Below are positions 21,660-59,640 of a stretch of 64,000 bases of DNA, piece after piece (position 1 is the first letter of the stretch; the number at the start of each line of letters is the position of its first letter). Below the pieces are notes generated by a model. That model worked only from the letters and a program-made list of their open reading frames with translations, searched no databases and was not told the DNA's origin. The position numbers and the translations under genes were made by a program. The stretch comes from Takakia lepidozioides (Eukaryota > Plantae > Bryophyta). The stretch covers positions 4,464,001-4,528,000 of the forward strand of contig CM060732.1 of the NCBI GenBank assembly GCA_030704615.1, given 5' to 3'.

Positions 21660-22288
21660 TTCACATTATAGAAACATCAGTGTTCACAGTGCCAAACTGC
21701 ATTGGAATATAAGGCACTTGCGATATAATAGCAGCCGCAAACTCATCTGCAGAACTAATATTAAGGTTATTCGGGTCACGGACAGACGTTTCGCTATCAA
21801 AAATATCGATCAGTGTTTCTAGATTCATAGTGGAAGAAATACAAAGCACATCATTTATGGTTGTTTCATTAGGAAGGAACATACTTCGCTATGGTGCTTC
21901 GCATTTTTTTATGTCCATTCCGTTACGCAAGAAGGCACACGATGCGAATTTTTTTCAAATCTAAGCATCGACAAAATACAACCGAAAAATGTACATGCAA
22001 GGTGTTTTTCGGGCCATTGGTGGATATTGTAAAGGAAAGCTCGAACAAATACATTTCATGGGGTTAAGCATAGCATGTTTTTGATTTCGGCACTACCATA
22101 CATTGCATATAGTTCCTTCTCCTCCTCCATTTTTTTTGCAATGACATTTCGACAAAATTGGAAATGTGGTTGTCCAAGTTTGCAATACCCAAGCATCCCT
22201 TTCCAAGTATACAACCGGTCATGTTCTAATTTTTCAGCTAGTGCACAGAGATCCCAACCAACGAACAACTTGATACGCTTGTTCACCT
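21660..22288 (-). mobile_element. Replitron-type HUH/Rep transposase C-terminal fragment (pseudogenised)
   Basis: Translation: LFVGWD..LYTWKGMLGYCK..GQPHF..NV..LYAMYGSAEIKNMLCLTP*NVFVRA..ILSMLR..NGMD..FLPNETTINDV. It has the GMLGYxxK catalytic-Tyr context and downstream blocks I recognise from plant Replitron Reps. The HUH motif itself is missing (truncated). Confidence 0.6.
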
Positions 22289-22299
22289 AAATGACACTC

Positions 22300-23803
22300 G
22301 TGGCAAAGAGGCACTCATTCGCGCACCTTTCTTGACCATAGCACGCCCCTTCGCACCTAATCAAGCCCCTGCACATGCTGCTTCAAGAGTCGTGCTCTAT
22401 CTAGGCTTGAAGTTGAAACCCCAACTCAAAACATGCTCTACAAGTGCCGGACTGTCACATAAAAGCAGATCAGCCCCTTAGCTTCCCTTCTAGCTCTCTA
22501 AAGCTTGAAAACAAAAGCCTCAGTGGACTGAAGGCATGCTTCACACATGCCCTACTCTCACCACAAGAGAATCAGCCCCTTTGCTTCCTTTCTTGCACCC
22601 ACCAACCTGAAAAATACAAGCTTGAGCGGGCTGAAAGCATGCTCCACACATGCATTGCCCTCACATAAGGGAAATCAGCCCTTCCCTCTTCCTTGCTTGC
22701 CCTCCAAGCTTGAAGATGAAAGCTTCAATGGGCTGCATGCATGCTCCACACATGCAACCCCTTCACACAAGAGGTATCAGCCCCCTATCCTGGCTCCTTG
22801 GCTCCTTGATGCTCTCTAAAACAAGACTAAGCAATCTATGACATTTGCCAAGCTCCTGAAACCTGAGGGTTTACATTTCCAGCCACAGGACACTCCTCTT
22901 GTGGTGCAAGAGCTTTTCTTCCAAGCTCTGAAACCCTAGGTGCACATTCCATGGCCCTGGCGCACCTCTTAGCTCCTGTTCCAGCCCTGCTCTTGCCATG
23001 GCAAGAGCCATCTCAATGCTGAAGCTCGAGATTGAAACCCAATCTCAACATACTCCACAAAGTGCACCGATTTGCCCCAAAGCCAAATCAGCCCTCTCGC
23101 TTGATCTTTTACTCTTCCGCACCATGGAAGCTCGTATCCCAAAGCTAGTTCTCAGATTTGCCGCCAGAGCCACTACCTGCTCTCGTTCAGCCTCATATGC
23201 TCATGACTGAGCCTCTTCCCACTCGTGCTCACCGCACACAATTTGAAACTATCAAGGTGTTCTGGAATTACCTGCAGCACGGTGCATTCATCTCTGAAGC
23301 TGAAGATCGAATGCCAAGGTCCACCAACTCGTAACCAACATCGCCTCCGCTTCTAACAACCAAGAGCTCCACGGTGCTTCTTGCATAACAACCTGGTTTC
23401 TCTCATTTTCAAGCAAAAACCACAAGTGCTACAACGCAACTCGAATCTGGCACAGACTCGAGCTCATCTTTCTCGAGTGATAAAGAAGAAGAATACAAGC
23501 ACAAGCTCATGCAAGCTCACAAAGCTGAACCCTAAACTCATGCATATATAAATTCATCACTCAAATATAAGTCAATTCAAGTGCACCCCACGCCATGGGG
23601 AATCCACACTATGGCGCCATAGCTAGGCACGGTGAGGCTCAACTCGAGAAAGATGAGCCTCCCGCGCTTGCCGTGAAGATACCCACTCCAGGACCTAAAT
23701 CTGCCTTGACCCCTGGATTGACACTTGGGCCAATCCCAAATATCAATATGTAAAAGCTAGCTATTTCCTAACTAGTTTCACACTAGTGTTGAAATAATTT
23801 GAC
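22300..23803 (-). mobile_element. Truncated 5' copy (leader plus half-LTR X) of the DNMT-gypsy family
   Basis: Colinear and highly similar to 52265-53842. The X segment 23478-23803 ends at ...aataatttgac, the same position as the full element. Confidence 0.9.
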
Positions 23804-27900: not shown

Positions 27901-28975
27901 TGACAAGTGAACGCCTCATTGGACAATCGAACAAATTTTGATTGATCTCGTATTACACTGGGATGTATCAGAGGATACATTGAACACACTGGCCAAGTCT
28001 CAAATCGAACGAAAATCATTTGGATGGGCAACCATCCGTTGGCCCATTGAACGAATTTCGATTGATCTCATATTACTCTGGGGCCTCTTACAGGGCACAT
28101 TGAACATAGTGGCCAAGTCTCAAAGCGAACCAAAATTATTTCGATGGCCAACCATCCGTTGAGCCATCGAATGAATTTCGATTGATCTCATGTTAGTCCG
28201 GGACCTGTGAGAGGGTGTCTCGAACGTACTGGCAAAGTTTGGAAGCAAACAAAAATGATTTGGATGGGCAACCATCCGTTCACCCGTTGAACATATTCCG
28301 TTGGATCTGCTATTGCTTTGGGACTGTGTTTCGCGTGCTCACGGTTTTTTTTTTCATTCGGTTTTTGAATGGGGCGTGTAATGTAGCCATATGCAACGTG
28401 CGTGCCAAATTTGGGAGCCAACACAATTCATTTGGACCCAAAACCACAGTTTCTTCCCTGTTTTTGCACTCCAAACTTGATTTGTGTTCAACTTCATGCA
28501 CTATTCATCAAGAGTTCTGCAATAGTGAGCGAAGTGAACACTTTTTTTTGGGGGCATTTTTTATTGGTCCAAATTTTGGCGGGGGAGTAGCGGTGGGATG
28601 CTTGAAGCCGCAGAACAAAATTGAGCCAAAAACAAAATGGATACGTGCCAGAAACCCCCAATGAAAGGCAGTGCAAACCTATTTATTGGCTTTAAATGAA
28701 TTTAAATTCAATTAAATTGTGGAATGGCTTGAGGGTGAGTGCGTCTATGGGGAGGCAAATGATTTATTCGTCTAATGTGTCTCCACACATGTTCCAGCAC
28801 TTGGGGGCAAAAGAGGGGCTTCAACCACATCCGTTCAATGGGTGCAATAGCCGTGCATGCTTTGTAGGATTTCTTTTTCGCATTGAACAAAAACCAAATG
28901 TCAAGTGAACGCCTCATTAGACAATCGAACAAATTTCGATTGATCTCGTATTACACTGGGACGTATCAGAGGGTA
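24987..28975. repeat. ~1 kb-unit satellite-like repeat (about 4 units) with an internal inversion forming a large imperfect palindrome
   Basis: 24987 repeats at ~25968 (period ~980). 26834-28385 is the reverse complement of ~26520-24987. Each unit has ~115 bp subrepeats (gagatcaatcgaaattc). Confidence 0.9.
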
Positions 28976-29549
28976 AAGTGGGGGGAAAGGAGACGATAGC
29001 TCAAGGGTGAGGGAGAACACCGCACAGAGCCCGCGTAAAGTCGAGAGCCTAGCTGGAGAGCTCAAAAGCTTGTTGGAAGAGAGAGCTTATGTGGTCGACA
29101 TGCAACATTATAGAAGACGGCTGTGAGCAGCGGTGAATGAGGGGACGTTACGTTTCATGTGTGTGCATGTGATCACGAAAATCTATGATAAGCACATGAA
29201 GAGAGAGAGACAAGAGGAAGTAATGGCTGCCAACATCATTCGGAGGAGGGAAATGTAAGCATACATCGTATGAATGTTCACCATTCAGGGAGAGAAAGGG
29301 AGAAAAGGATGGAACGAGGTCACGACACTTTCGTTGGCGGTGAAGCGAGGACTTGCAAAACGGCTAAGTCCAAACACCACTCACCGCAACATGCAGAGCG
29401 CCTATCACCTAGTCATCCTCTCGTTCCAATGTCGTATGCTTGTTAGATAGTTATTTATTAAAAAAAAGTTGGCTAGTTAATTTGTTTGTTAAAAATAAAT
29501 AGGTAAATATGGCTTTCATGAATGTCTGTTCCTCCCTACAACAAAGCCA

Positions 29550-35300: not shown

Positions 35301-38300
35301 TTCGTATGAGTTCTTGGTGATGCCTTTTGGCTCACCAACGCACCCGCGACCTTTAGCACGCTAATGAACAGCCTTTTCCAAGAGTGGTTGGATGACTTTG
35401 TGATCGTGTACATCGACGACATCTTGGTGTACTCGAAAACAAAGGAAAAACACCTAGAGCACCTCAAATGGGTGTTCCAGAAATTGCGGGAAGGAAAGCT
35501 GTATGCCAAAGCTTCAAAGTGCGAATTCGGGTCACAAAGTGGAGTTCCTAGGGCATGTGATTACACAGGATGGGATCAAAATGGATGACAGAAGGTGAGG
35601 GCGATCTAGGACTGGGAGCCTCGACTTCCGTCCGGGAGTGCGATCCTTCCTAGGACTCGCCTCCTATTACCGGAAGTATGTGAGAAATTTCGCCAAGATC
35701 GGGGCCGCTGTAAAACCTTGTGTAAATCCAAAGTCTGGGTATGGAACACCTTTTGTGGCCAAGCTTTTGCCGATTGAAGCACGGATGGTGGAAGCTCCAG
35801 TCCTCAAAATCCCGGAGTTCGACCATCCATTTGAGATTCATACAGATGCGTCGGACTTCGCAATGGGGGGTACTTATGCAGATGGACGTCCAGTGGCTTA
35901 CGAAATAAGAAACTAAATGAAGTGGAGCGACGGTGGCCTACGCATGAGAAGAAATGAAAGCGGTGGTGCATTGCCTTGAGCTTTGGCGCCACTATGTTGG
36001 TTCCAACCCGGTGAAGGTGTTCACGGACAATGTCACGGTGAAGTATTTTGCCACGCAGCCTAAGTTGTCCCTAAAACAACTTAGGTGGCAAGATACTTTG
36101 GCAGTGATCGACGTGGATATCCAGTACAAACCAGGACGAGACAATGTGGTGGCCGATGCTTTAAGTAGAAAGCAGCAGCTCATGTTGGTGTACAGGGGCG
36201 AGACGGCGCTCCAAAGGAAGATCCGGAAGGCTTACCGGAAGGATGAGATGGCGAAGTCCGTGATGCAGGACTTGAGGATGGGGGTTAAATCGCAGTTCCA
36301 CTTGCAAAATGGACTGCTCCGGTATAAGCAAAAGCGTCTCTACGTGCCGAAGGGAGGGATCAGAGATAGTCTCTTGAGAGAATGCCATGATGGCCCGCTT
36401 GCGGGCCACGGCGGAGCCAATCGCACCGCGGCACTCTTGAAGAAAGAGTATTTCTGGCCCAAACTGAGGGAGGAGGCCGAGGAGTATGTCAAGACATGCA
36501 CCACATGCCAACAAAACTGGAGCGAGTAAAAAAAGCAAGCGGGCTGTTACAACCCTTGCCGATCCAGAGGGGTTGGGAAAGTGTCTCGATGGATTTCATG
36601 ACTGCTATGCCGCTGTCAAAAGGATTCGATGCAATCATGGTGGTGGTGGATAGGTTCAGTAAAATGGGCCATTTCATCCCCACCAAGGAGACGGCAACGG
36701 CGAAGGAGACGGGGCGACTTTATTTCGCCCACGTCTTCAAGCATCATGGACTCCAGAAGAATATTGTCTCGGACCGCGATCCAAAGTTTACGAGTAAATT
36801 TTGGAGGGCACTTTGGAAGAAAATGGGGACGAGGCTCAAGATGAGCACCGCCTTCCAACCTACGACAGACGGCCAAACGGAAAGGGTGAATTCCGTGGTG
36901 AAGCAGATCTTGCGGAATTACGTGTCGGTAGACCAATCGGACTGGGTGGAACACTTGGATGCGGCAGAGTTCTGTTATAATAACACAAAACACTCCGCAA
37001 CAGGGGTTTCTCCTTTCGTATTGGTCTATGGAAAAGCACCTATGGTGCCGACAAGTTGGGCCGCCCAGGACGTTGAGGAACCGGCAGCAGCGGCGGTGCT
37101 GGAAGAACGCGAGCGTTTGTTGGAGCTCGCAAAGTACAACATTGCCAAAGCTAGGAAACGGTATGAAAGGCAGGCGAAGTTCGTACCTCCGTATGTGGGA
37201 CCCTTTCGCATCCGGAAGGTTATGAATGAGGATGTGTATGAATTGGAGCTGCCGGCAAACAACAAAGTGCATCCGATATTCCACGTCTCCCTTTTGAAGC
37301 CTTACTTCAAAGATGAAGCGCGTCCGAATCGGCATCAAGTGTTGCGTCCGCCACTTGTGCTGTTGGATCATGAAAATGAACCTGAGTACGAGGTGGAGGC
37401 AATGCTTAAGTCAAGGAGGTTCAAGAATCAAGAAACAGAGTATCTAGTGAAATGGAAGGGCTATCATCATGTGGAGGCATCTTGGGTGCGTGCCTCAGAA
37501 ATGGGAAACGCATCCGAGGCGGTTGCAACTTTCGAAGAGCGACCTCAAAAGCGGAAGAAGCGTTGATGGGGACATCAACCTTGGATCGTGGGGGAGGAAA
37601 TGCATGCTTAGCCCGACTTAGCTAGCTTAGGAATCCGATTGCAAAAACTTGTGTTGTACAAATTTTGTTATAAATGAAATGGTTTCCAAATGTTGCGTCT
37701 CCTATTTTTGTTTGGAATGGTGATGCATGGTATGGTTGGCTAGTGTGTAGAATGCATGCTAGCTTACAAAAGTGGGAGAGGTAAATTGGATTGTGTTTGC
37801 GCAGTGCCAAAATTGGGTGACTCCCATCCAAGGGGCAAGGAAACTTGCGCCTTCTTTGGGGAGTTCACGTGCTAGTGCGCACCTGACGCGTGCGCGTACT
37901 ATAACTGTGCTACCGAGGGGGTTGCCTTGTAGTGCGGGCTAATGCGGAAGCTATGTGCTTCCGTTCACGTACTATAATCGTGTAGCCTCGGGACGAAGTC
38001 GTAGCGCAGCTTCGGCGTGTTCCCGTACCTCAGGCAAGCATTCCAAGGCGGACCCAATTGTAGTGATTGGGGCGCACGGTTGGTTCAAGCTTATTTTCCT
38101 AGTCAAAAAGGGTTCAAGGTGAACCCTTGTTCAAGGTAATGCCAAAAGCGGCATCATGAGCGGTCGCAAGCAATGTTGTTGCAGTAAGGCGATTCGATCC
38201 TCGGGGAGGATCGTTCCTTGGCCTTGAAATAGGCCAAGCAGAGTGCACTAGGTGGAGCTTGAGAGGCTCCACCCTTGGCCGGGACTTGGAGGAAGTCGGC

Positions 38301-42016: not shown

Positions 42017-43393
42017 TATGAGTTATTGGTGATGCCTTCTGGGCTCACCAACGCACCCGCGACCTTTAGCACGCTAATGAACAGCCTTTTCTAGGAGTGG
42101 TTGGATGACTGTTGTGATCGTGTACATTGACGACATCTTGGTGTACTCGAAAACAAAGGAAAAGCACCTGGAGCACCTCAAAAGGGTGTTCCATAAATTG
42201 CGGGAAGGGAAGCTGTATGTCAAAGCTTCAAAGTGCGAATTTGGGGTCACAAAAGTGGAGTTCTTAGTACATGTGATTACACAGGATGGGAACAAAATGG
42301 ATGACAGAAAGGTGAGGGCGATCTTGGACTGGGAGCCTCCGACTTCGGTCCCGAGAGTGCGATCATTCCTAGGACTCGCCTCCAATTACCGAAAGTATGT
42401 GAGAAATTTCGCCAAGATCGCGGGGCCACTGTCAGACTTTCTGTCGTGCGCATACATATCGCTACACAACTACATCGCTGTCCAAAACCACACAACACAT
42501 GTGCACACCACACACTAGTATACCACTAGTCTACCACTAGTCCAGCCACTAGTCCAACCACTAGGCTACAACTAGTCAGTCACTAGGCTGCCACTACGCT
42601 GCCCACTATGGCAGTCACTAGTCCACACAATGATAAAGAAGAAGAATACAAGCACAAGCTCATGCGAGCTCACAAAGCTGAAGCATAAACTCATGCATAT
42701 ATAACCTCATCACTCAAATACAAGTCAAGCCAAGTGCACCCCACGCCATGGGGAATCCACACTACGGCGCCATAGCTAGGCGCGGTGAGGCTCAACTCGA
42801 GAAAGATGAGCCTCCCGCGCTTGCCGTGAAGATAACCACTCCAGGGCCTAAATCTGCCTTGACCTGGATTGACACTTGGGCCAATCCCAAATGTCAATAT
42901 GTAAAAGCTAGCTATTTCCTAGCTAGTTTCACACTAGTGGTAAAATAACTTGACAGCTGTCGTGCGCATACATATCGCTACACAACTACATCGCTGTCCA
43001 AAACCACACAACACATGTGCACACCACCACTAGTATACCACTAGTCCAGCCACTAGTCCAACCACTAGGCTACAACTAGTCAGTCACTAGGCTGCCACTA
43101 CGCTGCCCACTATGGCAGTCACTAGTCCACACAATCGCCCCCCTAGCTGGTGCTTAGGTCCCTCTAAGTCCAGGTAGCCACAAGATGTGATAGTGACCAT
43201 AGCCTCACTAAGTCCTCCACCACTATCCCTACTACACTCAAACTCGATAGATCAAGAGGCCGGGTGCAAGAGTTGCCCCATCGTTAGTCGCCGTCTTGCA
43301 ACCTGTGAACTTGAGCTTGGGATCTCATGTATTGACTCCTATGAGCTTGGCCTCCCATGTCTTGTTAGCTGCCTCCAGTCATGTCCACTGCCA

Positions 43394-43540
43394 CTATCCC
43401 AAGCAGTGTGGACACAACCAATCTCCGTCAGGAACCTTCTCAAGAGGTGGTGTCAAGCATCCCATATGCCAACCCCTTGAGCATCGATCACACACCAGCA
43501 TGGTGGCTGCCCCTTTGGCAGACCCACAGAGCATGCACCT
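43394..43540 (-). CDS. PHD finger at the C-terminus of the pol polyprotein
   Basis: CMLC..MLVCDRCSRGWHMGCLTPPLEKVPDGDWLCPHC is a canonical C4-H-C3 pattern with the conserved W. Confidence 0.93.
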   Translation of the reverse strand, partial: RCMLCGSAKGAATMLVCDRCSRGWHMGCLTPPLEKVPDGDWLCPHCLG

Positions 43541-43599: not shown

Positions 43600-44660
43600 G
43601 ACATGGCGCACAATTACGCACATGGTCCTTCCAAGTCATGCCATCCCGACCCTCAAGATCAGGACCCCTGGGGCAACACCTCTCGAACCCTCAGAAAACA
43701 CGCCCTGCAGTAACATCCAGAGTCGTAGGAGCAGTCTGCTGCAAATAAACATAGTCACCAGGGCTAAACCTCCGAACCCCAGGACGATATCCTCCACCAC
43801 GTATAGTGGCATACCTCAACGTATCACGGTGCTGTGCAATGGCAAGGTTCTCAAAAGCCATGGGCATGACTTTCTTGAACAACTCTGCACGCTGATCACA
43901 TGCACGTACCCACACGTCCGGATCGTCAAGGTTAAGGACTTGAGCAGTGTCCCTACGAATGGCTGCAGGCAAATCCGGCTCTCGGCCAAAGAGAAGGAAA
44001 TATGGTGAGAAGGAGGCAAGTGATGCTTGTTTGCTGAACCTGTAGCCCATGGCTAACCAAGGAACCTGAAGATCCCAATCTCCTAGGTGTCCCTTCTGCA
44101 AGCCATACTTGCGCAAACCCCTCTTCACCGTCTGAACAACTCTCTCTGCTAAGCCATCGGCCTCAGGATGATCCCGAGAAGTGGTGCGGTGGTCTATCAA
44201 GGCTTTATCACACAAAGCCTGAAACTCCCCCAAGAACTCTCTCCCTTGGTCCGTGAGTACCTCAGCTGGAGCACCAAATCGGCTAAGCACACGATCCAAG
44301 AATGCATACGCAGCCCCCTCACTAGCCTTGTCAGGCAATGGAACCAACTCAATCCACTTGGAGAAGTGCTCCACCATCACCAACACATATCTGTGGTGGC
44401 GCATAGTCAGTGGCAACGGTCCTGCGAAGTCAAGACTCCACCTGTAGCCCAATCCCATGATAGGTAAAGGATGCAACTGTGGTGTAGGGGCGTTGAATGA
44501 AGAAGCACCCTGTCACACACCATGCACCTAGCCACAAACTGTTGCACCTCTGTATGCATACCACGCCACCAATACTGCCCCTGCAGTAAACTGTGAGTGC
44601 GTCGCACTCCAAAATGCCCCAACTCCTCATGGGCATGCCGCACTAACCGTGCACGCTGTG
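43600..44660 (-). CDS. DDE integrase (HHCC zinc finger plus rve core), frameshifted
   Basis: HAHEELGHFG..CMVC; WSLDFAGP, VLTDQGREF, HPEADGLAERVVQTVK. Confidence 0.93.
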
Positions 44661-45017: not shown

Positions 45018-46343
45018 TCAATCCATCCGCATCCCGATTGACCAAACCCGGTCGATGCACAACTGAAAGTCATACTCCTGGAGTATAAGTGCCCACCGTG
45101 CAAGCTTCCCCGTAAGCTTGTCTGACTCCATCAACCACTTGAGTGGCTGGTGATCCGTGACAAGGGTGAAAAGATTGCCGTATAGATAGCACCTGAAGTG
45201 TGCCACGGCCCACACTGCAGCTAAGCACTCTCCCTCATATGAGCTGTACTTAGCCTCTGCAGCGTTGTTCGAGCGGCTAGCGTAAGCCACTACGAACTCT
45301 CTTCCCTCATCATCCACCTGTGTGAGCACCGCTCCAAGCCCCAGCATGCTCCAATCCGTATGCAGCTGAAAGGGACGCCCCCTGATAGGTCGTCTCAAGA
45401 TAGGCGCCGAGGTCAACCTCGCCTTGAGCTCTTGAAAAGCTCGTTCCTGCTCATCTTCCCACTGCCACTCCTGGTCCACCTTGGTCAGCTTGGTTAGAGC
45501 CTTTGCAATGGTACTAAATCCCTTGACAAACCGTCTATAATAGTTTGCCAACCCCATGAAAGCTCGAACTCGGCTCACATCCGTGGGGCGTGGAATTTTT
45601 GTGCAATGGCCTCTACCTTAGTCTGCTGTACCCCCAATCCTCCAGGATATATCATGTGACCCAGATACTCAATCTGGTTGTGGAAAAACTTGCACTTCCC
45701 CGGATGCAACTTCAATCCGTGCGCTCTCAAGCGCTCCAATACCACCTGAAGGTCTCTCATGCTCCTCCATCGTAACACTAAAGATGATGATGTCATCTAT
45801 GTAGCACCGAGCAAAGTCCACCCCTGCTAGAATCCTATCCATGACTCTCTGAAACTCTGCAGGAGCATTCTTAAGCCCAAATGGTAAGAACCGCCACTGA
45901 TATAGGCAATCCTTGCCGTGCTCATTGATCCCCCAGAATGCCGTCTTCTGCTTGTCCGCCTCCTTGATTGGCAACTGGTGATATCCGGATCGTAAATCCA
46001 AAGTGCTAAAGGCCTTAGCATGCCCGATGGCATCAAAGATCTCCTCTGGTGTTGGCATGGCATACTTATCGGACTTGGTCTGACGATTTACAGGCCGGTA
46101 ATCACCGCACATACGTCTCTCCGTCCAATTGCCATAGACATCCTTCTTGGCTGGCATCACTGTGGCTGAAGCATACTCTCCACCAGAGAGCTCCACCAAA
46201 CCTGCCTCCCAGAGATCTTGAGTCCTCATCTGAATCAAAGACCTCTCCATGTCACTGTATCTATAGGGTCTCCGAAAGATTGGCGTGTCAGTGGCCAACT
46301 CAATACGGATCTCTTGACCCTTCAGTGCTCCCAAGTCCTTCAA
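45018..46343 (-). CDS. Reverse transcriptase plus RNase H of the DNMT-gypsy element (frameshifted)
   Basis: [72 protein letters not shown]. Confidence 0.95.
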
Positions 46344-46794
46344 ACTGAAGGCAAAGCAATTCCTGTAAGCCCTCAGGAACCGCCGTATACGTCGTCTCTC
46401 TCCTCCGGTGACAATGGGTCCAATGTCAGGCTCCCAATTGTCCTCCGTAACTACAACCTTAAGTCCAGTGGGCTTAGAGGTAGAGGACGCGTCCGTGGTT
46501 GCTATGCTGCAACCTCTTGAGCAGTACTCCCTACCTGCTCAGTCAATGACAAGGCCTCATCCTGCCCCATCATCTCATCCTTGAGGACCTCCTCAACCGA
46601 GAAGAATCCCCAACCTCATCCATCACAGCCGCCTTGGCTGCCAACTCCCTCTGAACTCGAGCACCTCCCACGTGTGCCATGGATGCATGCACCCCGTGGT
46701 CCTCATATGCTCGCCCCCACTCACTGCCTGTACCGTCTCGGTAGGCAGAGAGACCATTGAGGGAAGTGTATTCCGCACTCTGCGTTGCTCAGCA

Positions 46795-47710
46795 GAGCCA
46801 AGCTGATAATCCAGGTCAAGCAATTGAGATCCATTGCTTGCCCCAACACTTGACGACGTGATGCCTCAGAAAGAGACGACACCGCCGTGGTACCAGTGGT
46901 AAAACCCATTGCCCGCTCACGCTCGTCAGCATTAGGCTCCACTAACTGCTGCAACTGAGCATCCCACAGGAGGCCAGGTCCACTATCCCGGAAAGCATGC
47001 GATCCTGGGAAGCTGAGCAGTGTAGGTAATGCTGCTCGTGGTTGACCCACCTTGTTGACCACTGCCAAAGGCGAACGGTCATCGTGTCTCACACGTTGAG
47101 ACTGCCTCCCTGTGTCCAGAATGTTATCCACTGTGAGATGTGCTGGCCGCTGCACCCCATCAAATGCACGCTTGAGCAGTGCGGGTGGCATCAGTTAGTC
47201 CACCATAGCCGTGGACGATGAGCCCGTGACCCCACTGTAGCTGCATAGCAACACTGCTGACCCAAGCCACCGGACTTGATGCACACTGGCCATCACCCTG
47301 GCCCGAGAATCGCCCATCAGTGGCACATTGCTGCAAGTGGCGCAAAACCCGCACCATCTCCCAAAACAGACCCGACCTCGAGTCTCGCAATCCATTGCCA
47401 TGCCCGGCTGATGAATGCCCTTGGCAGGGCCAACCTGCCACTACCAGATCAATGGAGCCAACCCGCTCCAAATCCTGCGCCCCCAGCAACGAAATGTCTG
47501 CTGGCAAGGCCTGCTGATATCCACGAATTGCAGACACCGACAACAACTCAGGGTACCGCTGCACCAACTGAGCAACATGGCGAAGTGAAACGCGTCGTGC
47601 AGTCTCATCCCTCTCCACATACAGGTAACGCCGAACTCGTACACCTGCCTGTAACACAGCAGCCAATCCGGTGCTGATCCCGCCAAACAAGTCCAGAAGA
47701 CAAATGCCTT
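46795..47710 (-). CDS. C5 cytosine DNA methyltransferase catalytic domain (DNMT3-like) inside the retrotransposon polyprotein
   Basis: Motifs occur in canonical order: I LDLFGGIS, II YVERD, III ADI, IV AGWPCQG (47421-47429), V GLRDSRSGLFWE, VI (E)NV at a frameshift/deletion, VIII AHRPRLWWTN, IX EPNADERERAMGF, X RRQVLGQAMD. Motifs I-V are in the same ORF as the protease (47160-48461). Confidence 0.92.
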
Positions 47711-48099
47711 CATCCGGAGACTGCCACACAATAGGTGTGGTGTCCAATGGAGACAATTGAGGTGGTCCTGGTGCAATCCCCACACTCTCCTCCTCTCCTG
47801 ACGGTACAAAAGCCTCCACCCAGGCTTGTTGCACCCGTCGATCAGCATCCCGCTGCAAATCCTTGCTCGTGCCCCACAATGGAGTCTGAGCAACCATGGT
47901 AGGCAACTCCGCCATACCATACATGTCATCCTGCTCTCCCGGAGGTGGTACATCCTCTGAATGAGCATTGCCCTCAAGCAACTCTCTAGGCCAACTCACT
48001 GCCGCTGTGAATGCTGCTAGTGTCGGCATCTTGCCTCGCTGGGCAACCGCAACTCCTCCTATGAACGTCACAGGGAGCTGCACACGCCGGCCCTCCCCT

Positions 48100-48461
48100 G
48101 ACTGCCATGCAGGCCTATAGGAAGCTGACTCCTCCCAAAAATCCAGGGTGAAGCCCATGGGGTACAACACTGCCCCACCAACCAGGACATCGTATGAGAC
48201 TGCGTCTGTCACAATGGCCTTGGCTCGCATCACTGAGCCATCTGTAGGGTGATCCGGCCGTAGTCTGATAGCCAACTCACGCCGTGTCATGCCCCGAGCC
48301 TGCTCCGATCCTCCCAGAGACGTCTGTATCTGGAAAGGACAAGGCTCCATATCCGCCTCCGTGAGGCCCAAGCCTGCAATAGCAGCTCTGCCCAGCATCA
48401 ATGGCTGAGCTCCCGAGTCCAACAAGACCGCAGTGGCGGTACCTCTTGCCTGCCGGTCCAC
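48100..48461 (-). CDS. Retropepsin aspartic protease
   Basis: VLLDSGAQPLMLG and YDVLVGG motifs. Confidence 0.88.
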
Positions 48462-49186
48462 TCAAACAGAAAATGCCATCCTGGTTGTCTAACATGACAA
48501 CTCCAGGTGTCACCATGGCGCGCTCAATGGCTGGCCTAGCTGGCAGCTCCATCAACCTGGCAGCTGCAGCTTGCCATGGCGCCGCCGTGGCAGTCTTGAC
48601 CCTCAAATCCGAGGATCCCTCCGGCACTACACCTCCCACTATCTCCGCAGAAGATGAAGTAACCTCCCCACTCTCACAGAGTGTAGCTGCCAGCCTGAAC
48701 ACCTCAGCTGGTCTTACCCCCGGCGTCGCAATCATGGTAGCCGAGAACAATGGAGCCTGGCACACAGATGTGGCCGCTCCTAGCAGCACACTAGCTGCCG
48801 TAGCCTTGGCAACACTAGGTAGTGGTGCTACCCGTGTAGCTCTCCCCAATGGCATAGTAACCTCCGCCTCGGTAACAGTCGGGCGAGAACTAGGTGCCAT
48901 GGATGGCGTCGACACTGTCTCCGCCAATGTGAATGACTGAGGAAGCCTAGCCTGACGGCTTGCCTCCCCACGCTGTGGATCCAACTCCACCTCTGCACCT
49001 CGTGGCTCAGGAACTCGTGCTGCTCCTCGAGTCACGGCTGCAGCAGACTCCACCTGCACTAGTGGTAGTGCTGCTCCACACATGAATCCCATGCCTCCCA
49101 TATCTCCTCCCTCAGGAGCAGGAGGTGGACCATCCGCCTTAGAGCCGGTACCACCTGAGCTGTAGCCATGGCAGCGAGCCTCTGCT

Positions 49187-50420
49187 CTAGCTGCTGAAGC
49201 CGGTTGGCCATGCCTTGGTCAACACCCTGACCTCCGCGTCCTGGCCACGTTGAGCTTGCCCTTGGCCTGCACCTCGTGGCTGGCCACCTCGTCCTCTGGG
49301 CTGCTCCACCTCGCCCCCGGCCACCATTGTTCCTTGGAACTGGCCTGGGCGCAACTCAGGATGCAAACCATAACACTGGGCCTCTCCATGCCCGTGCTTG
49401 CCACAATGCCCACACTGCAACTGTGCAGGCTGTGCATGTGCCGGCCCTTTGCCTCCCTCTGGGCAATCCTTCTTGACATGGGGTCCTCCACATGTCCAGC
49501 ACACCACATCCGCCCGTTGTTGGCCAGCAAATGAAGGAGAGACCCCTGCATCTGAGGTCCTCTCTGCCCTTCCCTGAGCTTCACCTGAGCCCCCTTGTTG
49601 CCTTGAGCACGTTGAGGTAGTGGTTGGCTAGGAGCACCACTACCCCGTGGTGTCTCCTTAGCAAATCCCACCATGACCACTCGTTCCTCCACCATGTTGA
49701 GCTCTATCCGCTGCCAGCAAAAACACATTTGCTAAGGTGGGTTGGGCCGCTTGTAGGAGAGTTGCATCCCGCACCCTTCTCCTCAGCTCCTTGTCCAATA
49801 TCCCATACCAGAATTGGACTGCCTGAGCTTCCGTAACCCCTTGGGTTACATTTATCAAGCGCCTCATGCGAGTGAAAGCCTCCCTCAAGCTCTCGGTCGG
49901 CTTCCGTTGGAACTCTTGCAAGCTCCGCAACTTCTCTGTCCTCACCCCTTGGTAGTTCCCTCTCAACTCTTCGAAGAACTCCACAACAGGGTTGAAGGCA
50001 GGCACGGGTGCTAGTGCTGGTGCGGTAGTGGCTTGGGTGGACGTCGTAGCTACTGTACCACCAGTCCCACTGCTGCTGCTGCTGAAGCTGCCGGTGCAGC
50101 GGCAGGTGTAGCCACTGCCCTCGTGGCTCTAGTGCCCCTAGTGATGGAGACATAGTCGGGTGACCAGTACATCCTCCACTCCTCGATCTCAACCTCATGC
50201 CCCCGCCTGAACTCATGGTAATCATCCATAGGCGGCCCCTCAAGGTGCTGAAACAGCCCTTCCATGCCATGAACGGCGTAAATAGTTGTGGATTGCGCAT
50301 TTGCTGCAAATCACACCAACTATCAAACTCTTGGATAAAATCATCCAACTCGATGGTGCCCACCGCCCCAGAGTACCTTCGTGGCCCCTTGGTAGCTCCA
50401 TACATCTCCTCCATTGTGTC
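49187..50420 (-). CDS. Gag with two CCHC-type zinc knuckles (frameshifted)
   Basis: PRRYSG..LDDFIQEFDSWC, LQEFQRKPTESLREAFTRM, CWTCGGPHVKKDC, CGHCGKHGHGEAQC. Confidence 0.85.
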
Positions 50421-50859
50421 CCACAAATGGCAAAGAAACAACTTGCACCGCCGGTATGAGTCCTCCTGATTCACAATCCGAATCAGAACCTTCCGTGGAA
50501 GACACAGGAGGTGAAGGTGGCCTAAACCGCACACCTCGTCTCGTGTACCCACTAGTATCGCTAGTGCTCGAACCGGCACTGTCCCCAGCAACTAGTGGCA
50601 CCTCCGTGTTGACACTCAACCGGTCATGAACATGTCCCTAACCCCCTCTCCACAAGGTAACCGGGTAGAGAACCTGTTGCGGCTTATGGTTTGGAATACT
50701 AAGTTCCTAACATAGACCTGAACTTGCATGACCATGGAATATCATGAAGCTCAAACCGCCCTCCACGAGCTTCAAAATTCGGCCTTCCAGACCACATGCC
50801 AGTCCTTAGTCCACCAGTGCCTCCACGAGTCAGCACAGGCCATCCACAGGTGCACAGGC

Positions 50860-51990
50860 CCACACAGCTCACTGGTCACACAGTTAACAGAACAGCCTTT
50901 GTTTTTTTTCTGTTTTCTTTCCTGTCACAACAGCCCGTTCATTTTTGTCACAGGCCCGTTTTTTTTGTTTTTTTTTTGGGTTTTCACAAGGGCCTTGTTT
51001 TCTTTTTCACAATAATCCAACATTTTGTTTCTTTTGTTTGTTTTCTGTTTTCTTTCTTCTTAACAGAACATTTTTCTCTAAGCTCAGATCTCACAGGGGC
51101 CGGGTTCTTTCTTCTTTTTTTTCTTTCACACAGACACAGGGCACACATTCATTTTTCTTTCATTTCCATTGGGCACATTACAGGCATCACAACAACATTC
51201 AGTCTTTTCACACAGCCCGTTTCACAGGGCATTTTGTTCACAACATTCACAGTCACAGCCCTCACAGGGGGCCTCAGGCAACAGGCCTTTGTGTCACAGC
51301 ACAGCCTGTCACACAGCCCGTCCATGTCACACACAGCCCGTTTCACAGGGACACGGCCTGTCACAGTCACAGGGCCCACACAGCACAGTTCCTCACAGCC
51401 TTCACAGCCCCAAAGGCCAGTCACAGCCCTCACAGCCGTCACAGCCTCAAAGGGGCACGGCCTGTCACAGCCCCTCACAGCCCGTCACAGCCCAAAGGCC
51501 TGGCCTGTCACAGCCCCTCACAGCCCATCACACACAACAGGTTGTCACAGCCCCTCACAGCCCGTCACAGCCCCAAAGGCCTCAGGCACGGCCTGTCACA
51601 GCAGCCGTCACAGCCCCAAACACGGCCTGTCACAGTCACATTCACAACAGGCCTGCCTGTCACAGGCCCACAGCAGCCGTCACAGGGGGCACAGCCTGTG
51701 GGTTGTCAGACACAGCCCGTCACAGCCCCACAGGGCACAGGGCCTCACAGCCCCACAGGGGCCTGTCACAGCCCCTTTCACAGCCCCAAAGGGGCACAGC
51801 CGTCACAGCCCGTCACAGCCCCACACAGCACACCGTCACAGCCCCAGGCCACTGGGCACAGCCTGTCCACAGCCCGTCACAGCCCCACAGGCACAGGGCA
51901 CAGCCTGTCACAGCCCATCACAGCCTGTCACAGTTCACAGCCCGTCACAGCTGCCTTTCACACACAGCCTGTCACAGCCCCACACATGGC
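50860..51990. repeat. TCACAG/CTGTCACAGCC degenerate minisatellite in the element leader
   Basis: Dozens of (c/g)tcacagcc units. Confidence 0.9.
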
Positions 51991-53499
51991 CGCTCTGGCA
52001 GTTTAGCCATTTCTCCAAGGGGTTTAGCCACGCCAAGCTAGGGTTTGTGTCTCTTGGACTCTAGGCTTCTTTCCACCGAGCTATGGTGGCTGTGAGGAAA
52101 TCAGCAAGGTATCCTTGCTCTTTCGGCTCCCACACACCACCATAGTAGCCCTAAGCCATGAGGTGGTTGCCACAAACCAAGCCTTCTTTCTCACTTAGCC
52201 TCCCCAAACACGCCACTAAACTCAATGGCAAACAACCAAGCCCTGCTGGTTCCCAGCCCTTGTGAGCACTCATTCAAGCACTCTCCTTGGCCATAGCATC
52301 TGTCTTAGAGCCTATTCCAGCCCCCTACACCTGTTGCTTCAAGAGTTGCGCTCCCTTCAAGCTTGAAGTTGAAACCCCAACTCACATAGGCCCTACAAGT
52401 GCTTTTCTTTCACTCCAAGTGGAAACCAGCCCTAGACCTTCCGTTCTAGCTCTCTAAAGCTTGAAAACAAGAGCCTCAATGGGCTGAAGGCATGCTCCAC
52501 ACATGCCCCACTCTCACCATAAGAGAATCAGCTCCTTTGCTTCATTTCTTGCACCCACAAACCTGAAAATACAAGCTTCAGCAGGCTGAAAGCATGCTCC
52601 ACATGCCCTACAGGGAAACCAGCCCCTTCCTTCCTTTCTTGCACTCCCACACCTGAAAGTGCAAGCCTTCACCAGGCTGATAGCATGCTCCACACATGCA
52701 TTGCCCTCACATAAGGGAAGTCAGCCCTTCCCTCTTCCTTGCTTGCCCTCCAAGCTTGAAGATGGAAGCTTCAATGAGCTGAATACATGCTCCACACATG
52801 CAACCTCTTCACACAAGAGATATCAGCCCCCTATCTTGGCTCCTTGGCTCCTTGATGCTCTCTAAGACAAGACTAAGCACTCCATAGCCTTTGCCAAGCT
52901 CCTGAAACCCTAAGGCTTACATTTCCAGCCACAAGACACTTCTCTTGTGGTGCAAGAGCTCTTCTTCCAAGCTCTGAAACCCTAGGTGCACATTCCATGG
53001 CCTTGCCGCACCTCTTAGCTCCTGTTCCAGCCCTGCTCTGCCATGACAAGAGCCCTCTCAATGCTGAAGCTCGAGATTGAAACCCAATCTCACCATACTC
53101 CACAAAGTGCACTGATTTGCCCCAAGCCAAATCAGCCCTTTCGCTTGGTCTTGCAATCCTTCACACAATGAAAGCTCGCATTCCCAAGTCCAGTTCTCAG
53201 CTTTGCCACCAAAGCCACTATAACCTGCTCTTGACTGGTCCTCTTCCCAATCGTGCTTGCTCATGCATGTACACAATCTGAAACCATCAAGGTGCTCTGG
53301 AATTACCTACAGTATGGTGCTTTCATCTCTGAAGCTGAAGATCGAATGCCAAGGTTTACCACCTCGTAACCCACATCGCCTCCGCTTCTAACAACCAAGA
53401 GCTCCACGGTGCTCCTTGCATAACAACTTGGTTTCTCTCATTCTCAAGCAAAAACCACAAGTGCTACAACTAACTCGTATCTAGCACTCATAGATACGA

Positions 53500-53515
53500 G
53501 CTCATCTTTCTCGAG
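53500..53515 (-). promoter_or_regulatory. Non-tRNA primer-binding site complementary to the LTR (putative self-priming)
   Basis: gctcatctttctcgag abuts B' and is the exact reverse complement of ctcgagaaagatgagc at 53681-53696. Confidence 0.75.
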
Positions 53516-56500
53516 TGATAAAGAAGAAGAATACAAGCACAAGCTCATGCGAGCTCACAAAGCTGAAGCATAAACTCATGCATATATAACCTCATCACTC
53601 AAATACAAGTCAAGCCAAGTGCACCCCACGCCATGGGGAATCCACACTACGGCGCCATAGCTAGGCGCGGTGAGGCTCAACTCGAGAAAGATGAGCCTCC
53701 CGCGCTTGCCGTGAAGATAACCACTCCAGGGCCTAAATCTGCCTTGACCCCTGGATTGACACTTGGGCCAATCCCAAATGTCAATATGTAAAAGCTAGCT
53801 ATTTCCTAGCTAGTTTCACACTAGTGGTAAAATAACTTGACACTTCTGTGTAAGTCCAAGGTATGGGTATGGAACACCTTTTGTGGTCAAGCTTTTGCCG
53901 AGTTGAAGCAGCGGATGGCGGAAGCTCCAGTCTTGAAAATCCCGGAGATCGACCGTCCATTTGAGATCCATACAGATGCGTCGGACTTCGCAATTAGGGG
54001 TGTACTCATACAGGATGGACGTCCAGTGGCTTACGAAAGTAAGAAACTGAATGAAGTGCAGCAACGGTGCCCAAGGCACGAGAAAGAGATGAAGGTAGTG
54101 GTGCATTGCCTTGGGCTTTGGCGCCACTATGTTGGTTCCAACCTGGTGAAGGTGTTCACGGACAATGTCACGGTGAAGTATTTAGTACAAACCGGGACGG
54201 GACAATGTGATGGCCGATGCTTTAAGTAGAAAGCAATAGCTCATGTTGGTGTACAGGGCGAGAATGCGCTCCAAAGGAAGATCCGGAAGGCTTACCAGAA
54301 CGATGAGATGGTGAAGTCCGTCATGCGGGACTTGAGGATGGGGGTTAAATCGCAGTTCCACTTGCAAAATTGACTCCTCCGGTACAAGCAAAAACTTCTC
54401 TACGTGCCGAAGGGAATGATCAGAGATAGTCTCTTGAGAGAATGCCATGATGGCCCGCTTGCGGGCCACGACGGAGCCAAGCGCACGCGGCGCTCTTGAA
54501 GAAAGAGTATTTCTGGCCCAAACTAAGGGAGGAGGCCAAGGAGTATGTTAAGATATGTACCACATGCCAACAAAACCGGAGCGAGTACAAAAAGTAAGCG
54601 GGGCTGTTACAACCCTTGCCGATTCCAGAGGGGTCTTGGGAAAGTGTCTCGATGGATTTCATGACTACTATGCCGCTGTCAAAAGGATTCGATGCAAGCA
54701 TGGTGCTGGTGGATAGGTTCAGTAAAATGGGCCATTTCATCCCCACCAAGGAGATGGCAACGGCGCAGGAGACGGGACGACTTTACTTCGCCCACGTCTT
54801 CAAGCATCATGGACTCCCGAAGGATATTGTCTCGGACCGCGATCCAAAGTTTACAAGTAAATTTTGGAGGGCACTTTGAAAGAAAATGGGGACGAGGCTC
54901 AAGATGAGCACTGCCTTCCGACCTACGACGGACGGCCAAATGGAAAGAGTGAATTCCGTGGTGAAGCAGATCTTGCGGAATTATGTGTCAGCAGACCAAT
55001 CAGACTGGGTGGAGCACTTGGATGCGGCAGAGTTTTGTTATAATAACACAAAACACTCCGCAACGGGAGTTTCCCCTTTCGTATTGGTCTATTGAAAAAG
55101 CACCTCTGGTGCCGACAAGTTGGGCCGCCCAGGACGTTGAGGAACCGGCAGCAGCGGCGGTGCTAGAAGCCCACGAACGTTTGTTGGAGCTCGCAAAGTA
55201 CAACATTGCCAAAGCTAGGAAACGGTATGAACGACAGGCGAATCGAAAGCAGAGGGAAGTTAAGTTTGAGGCAGGCACAGAGGTCTGGTTGAACATCAAG
55301 AATTTTTGACTACCTCCGGAAGTGAATCCGAAGTTCGTACCTCCGTATGCGGGGTCTTTTCGCATCCGGAAGGTTATAAATGAGGATGTCTATGAATTGG
55401 AGCTACCGGCAAACAACAAGGTGCATCTGGTATTCCACGTCTCCCTTTTGAAGCTTTACTTCAAAGATGAAGCGCGTCCGAATCGGCATCAAGTGTTGTG
55501 TCCGCCACCTGTGCTGTTGGATCATGAAAATGAACCTGAGTACGAGGTGGAGGCAGTGCTTAAGTCGAGGAGGTTCAAGAATCGAGAAACGGAGTATCTC
55601 GTGAAATGGAAGGGCTATCATCAAGTGGAGGCAACTTGGGTGCGTGCCTAAAAAATGGGAAACGCATCTGAGGCGGTTGCAGCTTTCGAAGGGCGACCTC
55701 AAAAGCGGAAGAAGCGTTGATGGGGACAACAACCTTGGAGCGTGGAGGAGGAAATGCATGCTTAGTCTTAGTCCGGCTTAGCTAGCTCAGGAATCCGATT
55801 GCAAAAACTTGTGTTGCACAAATTTTGTTTATAAATGAAATGGTTTCCAAATGTTGTGCGTCCTATTTTGTTGGAATGGTGATAATGGTGGGCTAGTGTG
55901 TAGAATGCATGCTAGCTTACAAAAGTGGGAGAGGTAAATTGGATTAATTGCGTGTTTGCGTAGTGCCAAAATCGAGTGACTCCCATCGAAAGGGCAAGGA
56001 AACTTTCGCCTTCTTTGGGAGTTCACGTGCTAGTGCGCACCTAGCGCGTGCGCGTACTATAACTGCACTACCGAGGGGGTTGCCTTGTAGTGCGGGCTAA
56101 CGCGGAAGCTACGTGCTTCCGTTCACGTACTATAATTGTGTAGCCTCGGGACGAAGTCGTAGTGCGGCTTCGGCGTGTTCCCGTACCTCAGGCAAGCATT
56201 CCAAGGCGGACCCAATTGTAGATTGGGGCGCACGATTGGTTCAAGTTTATCTTCCTAGTCGAAAAGGGTTCAAGGTGAACCCTTGCTCAAGGTGATGCCA
56301 AAAGCGGCATCATGAGCGCGCAAAGCGCGTTGCAGTAAGACGATTCGATCCTCGGGGAGGATCTTTCCGTGGCCTTGAAGTGGGCCAAGAAGAGTGCACT
56401 GGGAGAAGTTTGAGAGGCTCCACCCTTGGCCGGGACTTGGGAGAAGTTGGCCGAACTAGCTAGTGGAGAGTAGAGTCAAGTGGGGGTTTGGTTCTTTCCA

Positions 56501-57290: not shown

Positions 57291-59640
57291 CCTGTGCTGC
57301 TGCTCCTCATCCTGCACAAGCGCTATGGAAACATCATCTTGTGGTTTCCTTGTAGCTAGTGGATCTGCCACTACGGTCGCATCCCGCTTCTGTCTCTTGG
57401 ACTGGTGCTGCCCCTCCAATCCCCCTTCACCTTGTGAAGAGCCCTGCTCCTCAACTGCAGTTGTGGCTGTCTCAAACACTCCCATCTCCTTGCGTTCTCG
57501 CGCATCAAGCAAACAAGAGTCAAAGATAATTTGCGTAATTATTGGGCCAGACACAATGATCAGGGACTTAGCAGTAGTATTTTGTAACCGCTTCATCTCC
57601 TCCACCAGACCATTGTACTTCATCTCCGCCCAAGCTACATCCAGTCCTCTCAAGGCTTTCAGTACCTCCTCCGTGAAAGATATACTAAGGTACTGTTGAT
57701 TCTGTTTCATGGCAAATAGAACGTTCAGTATTTGGCCAACTTCCCTTAACCCTGGGTACTCGGCCTTGGTGCAGGTGTATCCCTGGGTCCTAAAGAAACT
57801 CGTTTCTTGGAACAAATCCCCTATTTGCAATCTTGCCCTGTGCTCATCCACATTCACCAACGACGCTACCGCGTGAGCCTGTGAGCGTACGCTCACACAA
57901 TGGTGATGTGGCGTGAGCCTACGCTCACAGCGTTGACGTGGTGCTGGTGCTGATGTGGCGTGAGCCCACCCAAGGTTGTGCCACATCACCACAAAGATGG
58001 TGGGCCTATAACCGTGGGATCTCACCATCTGAATGTGAGATGGGTTAAGGGTTTAGGGCGTCCGCAGAGATTAACCTTGTGTTAACACGAGGTTGATTTC
58101 AGAGAACTTGAAATGAACCTTGTATTAACACGAGGTTGATTTCCTAGAACTTGAAATGAACCTTGTATTAACACGCGGTTGATTTCCTAGAACTGATATC
58201 AACCTTGTGTTAACACGAGGTTGATTTGAAGTTCTCGAAATCAACCTTGTATTTAACACGAGGTTGATTTCCGAGAATGTTCATTTGAATGTGACTTGAT
58301 GTGTTCGCAAATGAACAAATGAGTTTGAGGAACGAATGCAACAAATGGTAGACGCACGCACAACACAATTGATGACGTGACATACACCGACAGACATACG
58401 ACTTCATTTTATTTTTTATTTTTTATTTCTCCCTGGGGGTGATGCAAATCAACCTTGCGTTGACGCAACCTTGATTTGAGAAATGAAAGCATCATTTTTT
58501 GATTTTTTGATTTTTGATTTTTGATTTTATTTTCCTCCCTGGGGGGTGATGCAAATCAACTTTGCGTTGACGCAACCTTGATTTGAGAATGAAAGCATCA
58601 TTTTTTGAAGATTTGTTTTTTTCTTCCTCCTTAGGGAGTGATGCAAATCAACCTTGCGTTGACGCAACCTTGATTTGAGAAATGAAAGTGTTTTTTTTTT
58701 TTTTTTTTTTTTTTTTTGGCTGGGAGGGTGATGCAAATCAACCTTGCGTTGATGCAACCTTGATTTGAGAAATGAAAGCATTCTTTTTTTAGGACTGTTT
58801 TTTGCATTTTGTATGGTTGCTGGCCCTGTTGTTCTTCGTTTCGTGTCTTGCATTGCAAGTCTTGCCAACCTGTTCTGCACCATGTTTTTTCATAAACCGC
58901 AAAGACGCTTTAGGGATTTCCTGGTGTTTGTCTGGGGAACATCTATCAATGAAAAGTGGATGTGAATTGGGGGGACGGAACTTCGTTAGAACAAACTCAT
59001 TCTTCTTCGTGTTCATTACGCAACATGACATTGTACTCTCTGAAATATCTTGTGCCCGTGGACAAAAATCATCCACAAACCACCCGTGATTTATCATCCG
59101 ATTAAGATTTGGATGAGGGATGAGACTTCTCGGAAATTAATGTTGGCAAATCTGGGGCGTGGTAGTCGCCTATAGTTCCGCGGAAATAGGTGGCATCCGC
59201 GGAATTAGGTCCTGCACGTGGGAAACCTTGCTGACGTGGCGTGAGCCTGGCTGGGCTCACACGCTCACAGGCTCACGCGCAAGCATTCCCCCCACATTCA
59301 CCTGACCAGATGGCAATTCGAACAGTTGTTGCAAGTACTGTGGAGTACTCTCTATATCCTCTCCCTTCACCTGAGTAACTCATGTCCGAGACTCAAAGTT
59401 ATGAATAAATTGGATCACAACCCCCGATGATGCAAAGACCACTCTTTGCGTAGCAGAGAGAATGTACTTTCAACCCGTCCGTCCTTGCGCCACTGCGTAA
59501 GAAGTAAAGCTAGCGTATAGTCTGTGATATCCGCCATAGCTACAAAGCTATAGCTTTGATTGCCCCTCCCGTCGAGACGCTGGTTATTCGGAGCAACCCC
59601 TACTCTTCCGCTCAGTGTAAGGTCAAAGGGTCGCTCCATC
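57291..59640 (-). pseudogene. Intronless TE-accessory-like ORF of unknown function, interrupted by two insertions
   Basis: Removing 57859-59291 plus one direct repeat joins ..LFELPSGQVNV|DEHRARLQIGDLF.. in frame. The ORF is cut at 57290 by the chromovirus LTR. Confidence 0.5.
57859..59291. mobile_element. Non-autonomous DNA transposon (MULE-like) with a 9-11 bp TSD and imperfect termini
   Basis: Direct repeat ccacattcacc at 57848-57858 and 59292-59302. Subterminal inverted cgcgtgagcctgtgagcg / cgctcacaggctcacgcg. Internal ~39 bp and ~100 bp tandem repeats. Confidence 0.8.

Follow-up and report, generated by a model that had tools for sequence, protein, structure and literature searches.

Ngaro and PAT retrotransposons carry split direct repeats and a tyrosine recombinase. 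A tyrosine recombinase is also used by SymbioDIRS-Dnmt3, which combines the repeat layout A-coding-B-A-B with a DNMT3 domain, and CG methylation was demonstrated for it in yeast according to the main text of its description (PMC5890265). The same text (de Mendoza et al. 2018) describes KnitGypsy-Dnmt3 of the alga Klebsormidium nitens, a Ty3/gypsy element with a DNMT3-like domain that is under purifying selection and with DIRS-like repeats, which are named in the legend of Fig. 4c with no further detail. Other LTR elements that pair a methyltransferase with a chromatin reader are the EpiLTRs and DAM-LTRs, which are characterized by a DNMT that is sister to DNMT4, by DAM with a chromodomain, and by their occurrence in Euglena and Cymbomonas; in the accessible part of the preprint (bioRxiv 10.64898/2026.05.21.726589) its authors distinguish these elements from those of ‘streptophytes (Gypsy-DNMT3)’, a wording that may include land-plant elements. 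Methylase-carrying transposons were denied for land plants, ‘such as tracheophytes’, in the accessible text of a 2019 review (PMC6338049). Two further groups are relevant for their priming and hosts, as given in the main text of Neumann et al. 2019 (PMC6317226), from which the words ‘methyltransferase’ and ‘PHD’ are absent. Tf1/Sushi and Tcn1 chromoviruses have a priming site complementary to their own LTR rather than to a tRNA, and the Phygy and Selgy non-chromoviruses of REXdb are moss or lycophyte Ty3/gypsy elements with 4-bp duplications, tRNA primers and no extra domain listed.

The window (the whole 64,000-nucleotide stretch of DNA analysed here) contains an 11.4-kb Ty3/gypsy element on its minus strand (53842-42442), in which a DNMT3-like C5-methyltransferase domain lies between the protease (PR) and the reverse transcriptase (RT). 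Like KnitGypsy-Dnmt3, for which the K. nitens protein P0095 has the order PR-DNMT-RT-RH-IN, it is a gypsy element that joins a DNMT3-like domain under purifying selection to split repeats. It differs in its bryophyte host, in a stop codon that separates DNMT from RT, whereas the authors place the K. nitens DNMT in the RT ORF, and in a C-terminal PHD finger, which the main text of PMC5890265 does not mention; nor does the accessible part of that text describe for K. nitens the priming site, palindrome and target duplication that are found in the window family. The element shares layout and methyltransferase type with SymbioDIRS-Dnmt3, and is set apart from SymbioDIRS, Ngaro and PAT by its DDE integrase, protease, polypurine tract, TG…CA ends and 4-bp duplications; the ORFs scanned in the window element gave no match to a tyrosine recombinase and an rve integrase was found instead. 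Its self-complementary priming recalls Tf1/Sushi and Tcn1, but it has a PHD finger in place of a chromodomain, its repeats are split, and in an RT tree it lies far from the window's own chromovirus. From Phygy and Selgy it can be separated by published descriptions only, namely by its self-complementary priming site and extra domain and by duplications (CATA, AAGG, TGTT and CACA in the window family) that contrast with the NCGN target given for Phygy in PMC6317226. With the EpiLTRs and DAM-LTRs it shares the general pairing of methyltransferase and reader. Troyka elements were ruled out, as the available part of their description gives CG…CG ends, 3-bp duplications and a restriction to animals.

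In the literature covered, which excludes subscription journals, Repbase, the main 2018 supplement and the preprint supplements, no land-plant description of such an element and none of six Marchantia gene identifiers were found, and within the same coverage the literature listings contained no DDE element with an A-coding-B-A-B end structure. Retrotransposon DNMTs of bryophytes also go unmentioned in the accessible text of Sarre 2024, Yaari 2019 and an MBE 2025 paper. The initial annotation knew of no described lineage of this kind in land plants, and to that extent it agrees with the literature covered; the element class and repeat layout were already published for K. nitens, and the preprint names a streptophyte Gypsy-DNMT3. 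Bryophytes clearly do carry methylase-bearing retrotransposons, contrary to the 2019 review.

On balance we lean towards the reading that the window holds a young, frameshifted Ty3/gypsy copy whose gag-PR ORF ends in a DNMT3-type domain, which would be packaged with Gag and methylate new cDNA, and that such elements integrate by end joining and an internal cut. A wider formulation is offered tentatively and is in our judgement less probable than its opposite: that an old green-lineage LTR group of mosses and liverworts, including Marchantia, joins its cDNA ends and uses its DDE integrase to cut an LTR-internal palindrome, a way of integrating so far undescribed among LTR elements, loads active DNMT3 at Gag stoichiometry, and delivers copies that arrive methylated and steered by the PHD finger.

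A DNMT3-like methyltransferase within a Ty3/gypsy element

The element has the order gag-PR-DNMT-stop-RT-RH-IN-PHD, and thus the gag-PR-RT-RH-IN succession and DDE integrase typical of Ty3/gypsy elements, together with their TG…CA ends, polypurine tract, priming site and a target duplication within the usual 4-6 bp; two complete and equal LTRs are absent, and the termini instead form A-coding-B-A-B split direct repeats. All parts named here are on the minus strand. After a 5’ non-coding region of ~2.9 kb that contains low-complexity sequence and ~103-bp repeats (50563-53499), a frameshifted gag (49150-50562; weak PF03732 match) contains two CCHC-type knuckles (49501-49463 and 49414-49373). The aspartic protease (48075-48438) has the motif LLDSGAQ at 48425; the protease of an intact metagenome relative, L061, gives weak matches to Pfam proteases. 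The methyltransferase domain (46793-47708) is followed by a conserved TAG stop and CAA CCA (46496-46504), which end gag-PR-DNMT and are likely a readthrough site, by a frameshifted reverse transcriptase and RNase H (45063-46190; YIDD at 45803), and by a DDE integrase (43700-44640) that comprises an HHCC zinc finger, a core with D 44431, D 44251 and E 44146, and a C-terminal part. A PHD finger (43403-43537; PF00628, E=1e-11) ends pol.

The methyltransferase was recognized by a PF00145 match (E=5e-10) on the minus-strand ORF 47163-48461. Its motifs I, II, IV, VI (NV only), VIII, IX and X occur sequentially, as LDLFGG (47696), YVERD (47621), GWPCQG (47435), NVP (47329), GSRAHR(PR) (47232), ERAMGF (46918) and LGQAM (46846), and the domain is hence unpermuted, unlike DRM. 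The C-terminal DNMT piece taken alone had no match in Pfam or PDB. A profile built from 11 relatives scored DNMT3A at 78 bits and DNMT3B at 74, as compared to 48 for a DRM-type enzyme, 35 for HaeIII and 29 for DNMT2, and none of its 55 matches was DNMT1 or CMT. The domain of an intact metagenome relative (L018) was modeled with a pLDDT of 72 and a pTM of 0.79; Foldseek matched this model to DNMT3A (E=2e-14, TM 0.57), and among the matches listed every rank from 1 to 50 was a DNMT3 structure. The ranking of similarity to known enzymes supports classification of the domain as DNMT3-like. The initial annotation, which had described a C5-methyltransferase with its motifs in order, an intact PC and a resemblance to DNMT3, is thus borne out. 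It had also placed the domain in frame behind the protease, ahead of RT and inside Pol. The first of these positions stands, since the protease shares one frame with motifs I-IV; the stop at 46504-46502 separates the domain from RT, and in this clade the domain ends the Gag-PR ORF rather than lying inside Pol.

End structure and a predicted route of integration

The element begins with repeat A1 (53842-53517), which starts with TGTCA and is likely the distal U3, R and U5. The coding region is followed by the polypurine tract AGGGGGGCG (43136-43144), directly before repeat B1 (43135-42958; ends in CACGACA), two bases, GC, and then by A2 (42955-42632) and B2 (42631-42442), which are bluntly joined; the …GACA of B2 is the 3’ end of the element. 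A1 and A2 differ by 0 substitutions and 2 gap columns. The element is flanked by 4-bp target-site duplications on the plus strand (CTTC at 53843-53846; TTTC at 42438-42441, one mismatch), the left of which lies within the RT-RNase H region of a chromovirus into which the element was inserted. The same split-repeat layout is complete in three metagenome loci (L050, L065 and L077) and partial in three others (L018, L042 and L068). Of the seven elements with both ends, four have perfect 4-bp duplications (L023, L047, L065 and L077), two have one mismatch (L009 and the window element) and 1 is unreadable. Elements with this end structure may be missed or split by LTR finders that expect two equal LTRs.

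Directly after A1 lies a predicted self-priming primer-binding site (53500-53516, minus strand), all 17 of whose bases form Watson-Crick pairs with nucleotides 147-163 of A (53680-53696, minus strand), the predicted RNA 5’ end and self-primer. The window element, L065 and L061 each carry a different sequence at this site, in every case with its own matching partner; the fold z score is -8.4. For a 12-mer with Watson-Crick pairing, at least 10 of 12 positions match in 19/22 elements as compared to 2/132 controls, with 7 of the 22 best matches off the usual position; when G-U pairs are allowed, separation from the controls is poor. No tRNA genes were found in the window.

The location of the polypurine tract before B and the priming site after A means that reverse transcription defines the LTR as B+A, from which a linear cDNA of the form B-A-coding-B-A is expected. 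The inserted ends are different: A opens with TGTCA and B closes with GACA, and these two sequences meet at the B1/A2 joint in the palindrome GACA-GC-TGTC (42952-42961), a predicted integrase attachment site. The palindrome is kept at the same joint in L018, L065, L068 and L071, and its spacer is altered in L042, L050, L061 and L077. At the A2/B2 joint, in turn, the window element, L042, L050, L065 and L077 have the two ends set by reverse transcription exactly adjacent to each other. This consistent end anatomy (polypurine tract, covarying self-priming site, palindrome, blunt joins and 4-bp duplications) is a new point. In the simplest and likely reading, reverse transcription proceeds normally, the cDNA ends become joined, and the integrase then makes a staggered cut in the internal palindrome, at CA^GC on each strand. 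Under this scheme the RNA would start ~147 nt into A1 and prime itself on the site after A1, reverse transcription would yield linear B-A-coding-B-A, the two cDNA ends would be joined bluntly to create the A2/B2 joint, and the DDE integrase would cut the internal palindrome CA^GC-TG and insert the product with a 4-bp duplication. Recognition of histone H3 by the PHD finger may guide the choice of insertion site. The end structure suggests that the integrase acts on an internal site, which would be relevant to the question of whether cDNA that has been joined or circularized can ever be productive.

In a plain two-LTR circle both palindromes are equivalent, but 0/22 distinct 5’ ends show the mirror form A-B-A-coding-B, so the joining and cutting steps would need some further bias. 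In addition, of the 15 3’ ends that have a polypurine tract, 8 lack A2-B2 and show just A-coding-B; this shorter form is seen in L009, L023 and six more loci. A template jump or a timing bias could explain both features. It is possible, if short of probable, that the repeats were split with no end joining at all: synthesis would jump from the right to the left cDNA end and recopy B, and the integrase would cut at two palindromes to give A-coding-B-A-B or A-coding-B. Such a jump accounts for the missing mirror forms and for the frequent A-coding-B ends with an intact 4-bp duplication, which is perfect in L023, but end-to-end jumps of this precision are only inferred, and A-coding-B can also be derived from recombination between B1 and B2 or from short-read collapse. 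The A/B joint of L033 and L047 retains 14 bases that start like the priming site. A priming-site remnant of this kind is reported for joined HIV-1 cDNA ends in the portion of that literature available, and the remnant fits ligation equally well. End joining followed by an internal cut is the reading that we carry forward. As a separate observation, the contig of L061 runs B-A-priming site-5’ region at 8544-9317 and seems to close on itself, probably because repeats were collapsed in its assembly.

Distribution of the family and selection on the domain

Two homologue searches returned 51 and 64 sequences, the named ones coming from Marchantia, Calypogeia, Sphagnum and Klebsormidium; Scenedesmus was present among 20 homologue proteins that were looked up. 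Marchantia has several annotated ORF1 models of ~1,280 aa with intact motifs. Of 10 full-length ORF1 proteins examined across the family, 7 have all seven tested motifs and 3 have all but the motif-X pattern. A metagenome search returned 152 relatives when an alignment served as query (none with a single protein); 80 were retained, and in most of these loci the parts follow each other in the same order and at the same spacing as in the window element, with RT ~1.52 kb past the start of the methyltransferase domain. The domain is therefore a family-wide feature and not the one-off capture that had been considered as the alternative. These loci group with Sphagnum proteins and are called peat-moss-like for this reason.

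Among loci from metagenomes, 74/75 retain the catalytic Cys and 68/73 the ENV Glu, while the two motif-VIII arginines are kept in just 47/72 and 52/71. Stop, repeat and dN/dS results refer to the window element and the metagenome loci; Marchantia, Calypogeia and Klebsormidium entered the analysis as proteins. Between intact relatives the dN/dS of the domain is 0.119 (L061/L064) and 0.108 (L061/L071), and that of RT in the same pairs is 0.048 and 0.025; the domain evolves faster than RT, with a dN of 0.16 versus 0.05 in L061/L071. Among peat-moss-like copies the value rises to 0.63-1.0, and these copies, judged from this ratio and the loss of motif-VIII arginines, are mostly decaying. The window element differs from the peat-moss-like loci by a pN of 0.23-0.25 and a saturated pS of 0.75-0.78. 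The substitution patterns support purifying selection on the domain between lineages, not among decayed copies.

Trees were built from 11/11 PR-DNMT-RT proteins and 17/62 RH-DNMT proteins. The RT-RH and DNMT trees agree on a clade of the window element, Marchantia and the peat-moss-like copies (SH-aLRT 98 and 100), in which the window element is basal. K. nitens is not sister to this clade in either tree, and the deeper nodes are weak: with a single outgroup, the RT tree places K. nitens beside RH-DNMT-IN elements at a weak support of 83, and the DNMT tree does not resolve its position. A second architecture, RT-RH-DNMT-IN-PHD, is represented by 48 proteins. Both trees unite its members (99 and 92), which implies at least one change in the position of the domain. 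In these 48 proteins (such as P0083-P0105) and in the Scenedesmus pol proteins P0184 and P0299, the DNMT3-like domain sits behind RNase H and ahead of the integrase, and PC, ENV and RxR are intact in many. The distribution suggests that the element lineage reaches chlorophytes. Among single proteins, P0043 matches both PF00145 and PF05869, and P0049, P0097 and P0099 have a CCHC knuckle and a C-terminal DNMT, with the protease undetected.

The family is very abundant in one sample, from which 91,195 of 2,790,647 contig records (run X1) and 97,678 of 3,038,600 (run X3) fall on an 8.4-kb stretch; this ~3% is a share of records and not a copy number. As to expression, 6 partial reads among the 21 million of run X16 match 35 bases at <90% identity, which argues neither way. 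A 2.3-kb family record over window positions 46284-48502 (record 17 of run X7) comes from a run labelled as another organism, and its ends look to us like a cloning-vector polylinker.

Predicted expression and function of the methyltransferase

In L061 a gag-PR-DNMT ORF1 of 1,369 aa and an RT-RH-IN-PHD ORF2 of 1,047 aa abut in one frame with a single stop between them, and the same stop is present in L071. In 34/35 peat-moss-like loci with a complete linker a stop is aligned at this site (TAG in 25 and TAA in 9; the remaining locus has GAG), and CAACCC follows the aligned position in 34/35. The window element, L061, L064 and L071 have TAG-CAR-YYA at the stop, the CAR-YYA being what we take to be a plant readthrough signal. 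The ORF1 models of Marchantia, Calypogeia and Klebsormidium end 80-90 residues past motif X. This conserved in-frame stop before RT is a new point, and because it lies between the enzyme and RT, the domain belongs to the Gag ORF. From the arrangement of the reading frames we infer that the methyltransferase is made at the level of Gag and RT by readthrough; ORF1 would be made in excess, and RT-RH-IN-PHD would arise by readthrough of TAG-CAA. The peat-moss-like family has an in-frame ATG after the stop, which makes reinitiation possible there. The stop before RT alters the expected enzyme dose. De Mendoza et al. 2018 (PMC5890265), in their main text, argued for action in cis from a DNMT that shares its ORF with RT; co-packaging through Gag would give the same cis result.

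If packaged with Gag, the methyltransferase would methylate the element's new cDNA, likely at CG, and the most likely effect of methylation would be to make the new copy resemble any other host DNA, or to limit its own expression. Methylation of cDNA at CG is a best guess that draws on the conserved catalytic motifs, the CG activity of SymbioDIRS-Dnmt3 and CpG depletion. The observed/expected ratio of CpG at codon boundaries is 0.30 in the element as compared to 0.79 in the neighbouring chromovirus, the one comparator, and 0.32-0.62 in L061 and L071. The host GPN3 region is also CpG-poor (0.32), which counts against the argument, and host methylation can deplete CpG as well. We consider it rather unlikely that the domain is instead kept for a non-catalytic job, such as binding cDNA or RNA or a structural part in the particle, or that it methylates host DNA in trans and not the element's own cDNA. 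This would agree with the K. nitens domain, which was without activity in yeast, a result that its authors call inconclusive in the main text (PMC5890265), and expression with Gag would presumably supply far more enzyme than cDNA methylation needs. A dead fold, however, does not need FxG, PC, ENV and RxR, which are kept across lineages with saturated synonymous sites, and methylation of the element's own cDNA is the function that we prefer. The question raised in 2018, of what a retrotransposon gains from its own DNMT, can now be addressed in the genetically tractable Marchantia.

State of the window copy and its surroundings

Frameshift-aware alignment of the window copy to its relatives revealed ~20 frameshifts, 12-13 in gag-PR-DNMT, 6 in RT-PHD and two more in the linker, and no premature stops in ~2,250 aligned codons. 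The methyltransferase domain has three internal breaks (47330, 47245 and 47192) and a fourth just past motif X (46803). At 47330, ~8 residues and the ENV Glu are absent relative to other family members, and one sequencing record of another copy has 35 extra letters at this break. PC is present, the Glu is deleted and RxR is in a different frame; the copy as assembled reads as dead, and on its sequence the enzyme cannot be made from it. A small deletion or frameshift at the ENV Glu had been noted in the initial annotation, and it is indeed there, though it is not the sole break. The insertion is very young, as the terminal repeats differ by 0-1 substitutions in ~500 bases, and the abundance of indels beside so few substitutions may reflect misassembly of repeated DNA. 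The same combination might suggest that the whole arrangement is an artefact of nested insertion or assembly, or that one recent capture brought in the domain, which has since been carried along neutrally; this is almost certainly wrong and already refuted by order and spacing that recur in dozens of the 80 loci and in Marchantia and Klebsormidium proteins, by the congruent RT and DNMT trees and by a dN/dS near 0.1.

The window also contains an intact gene for GPN3 (GPN-loop GTPase 3) on its minus strand (11255-6052; nine exons, 270 aa). It is 88.8% identical to its counterpart in Sphagnum; identity is 83.7% for Marchantia and Calypogeia, 82.1% for Diphasiastrum and 77.9% for Mesotaenium. Among 12 relatives, 5 of them named, it clusters with Sphagnum at an unstarred support of 86/85. 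The likely host is thus a moss outside Sphagnum, in keeping with the land-plant host that had been proposed. The element that carries the methyltransferase lies in a plus-strand cluster of nested, degraded chromovirus-type gypsy elements (31587-57290), one of which it splits; an integrase, SH3 and chromodomain occur at 36391-37563. The tandem array at 56-1203 has a repeat unit of ~92-96 bp and that at 58407-58810 one of 90-107 bp, and a 120-bp tandem repeat at 24987-28980 has blocks in opposite orientation that form inverted repeats of 300-690 bp with 93-97% identity. A second, truncated fragment of the family (22311-23803, minus strand) consists of repeat A and part of the 5’ non-coding region, with 87-94% identity, and adjoins a weak minus-strand match to a Replitron HUH endonuclease (22059-22286; E=5e-4, below the cut-off).
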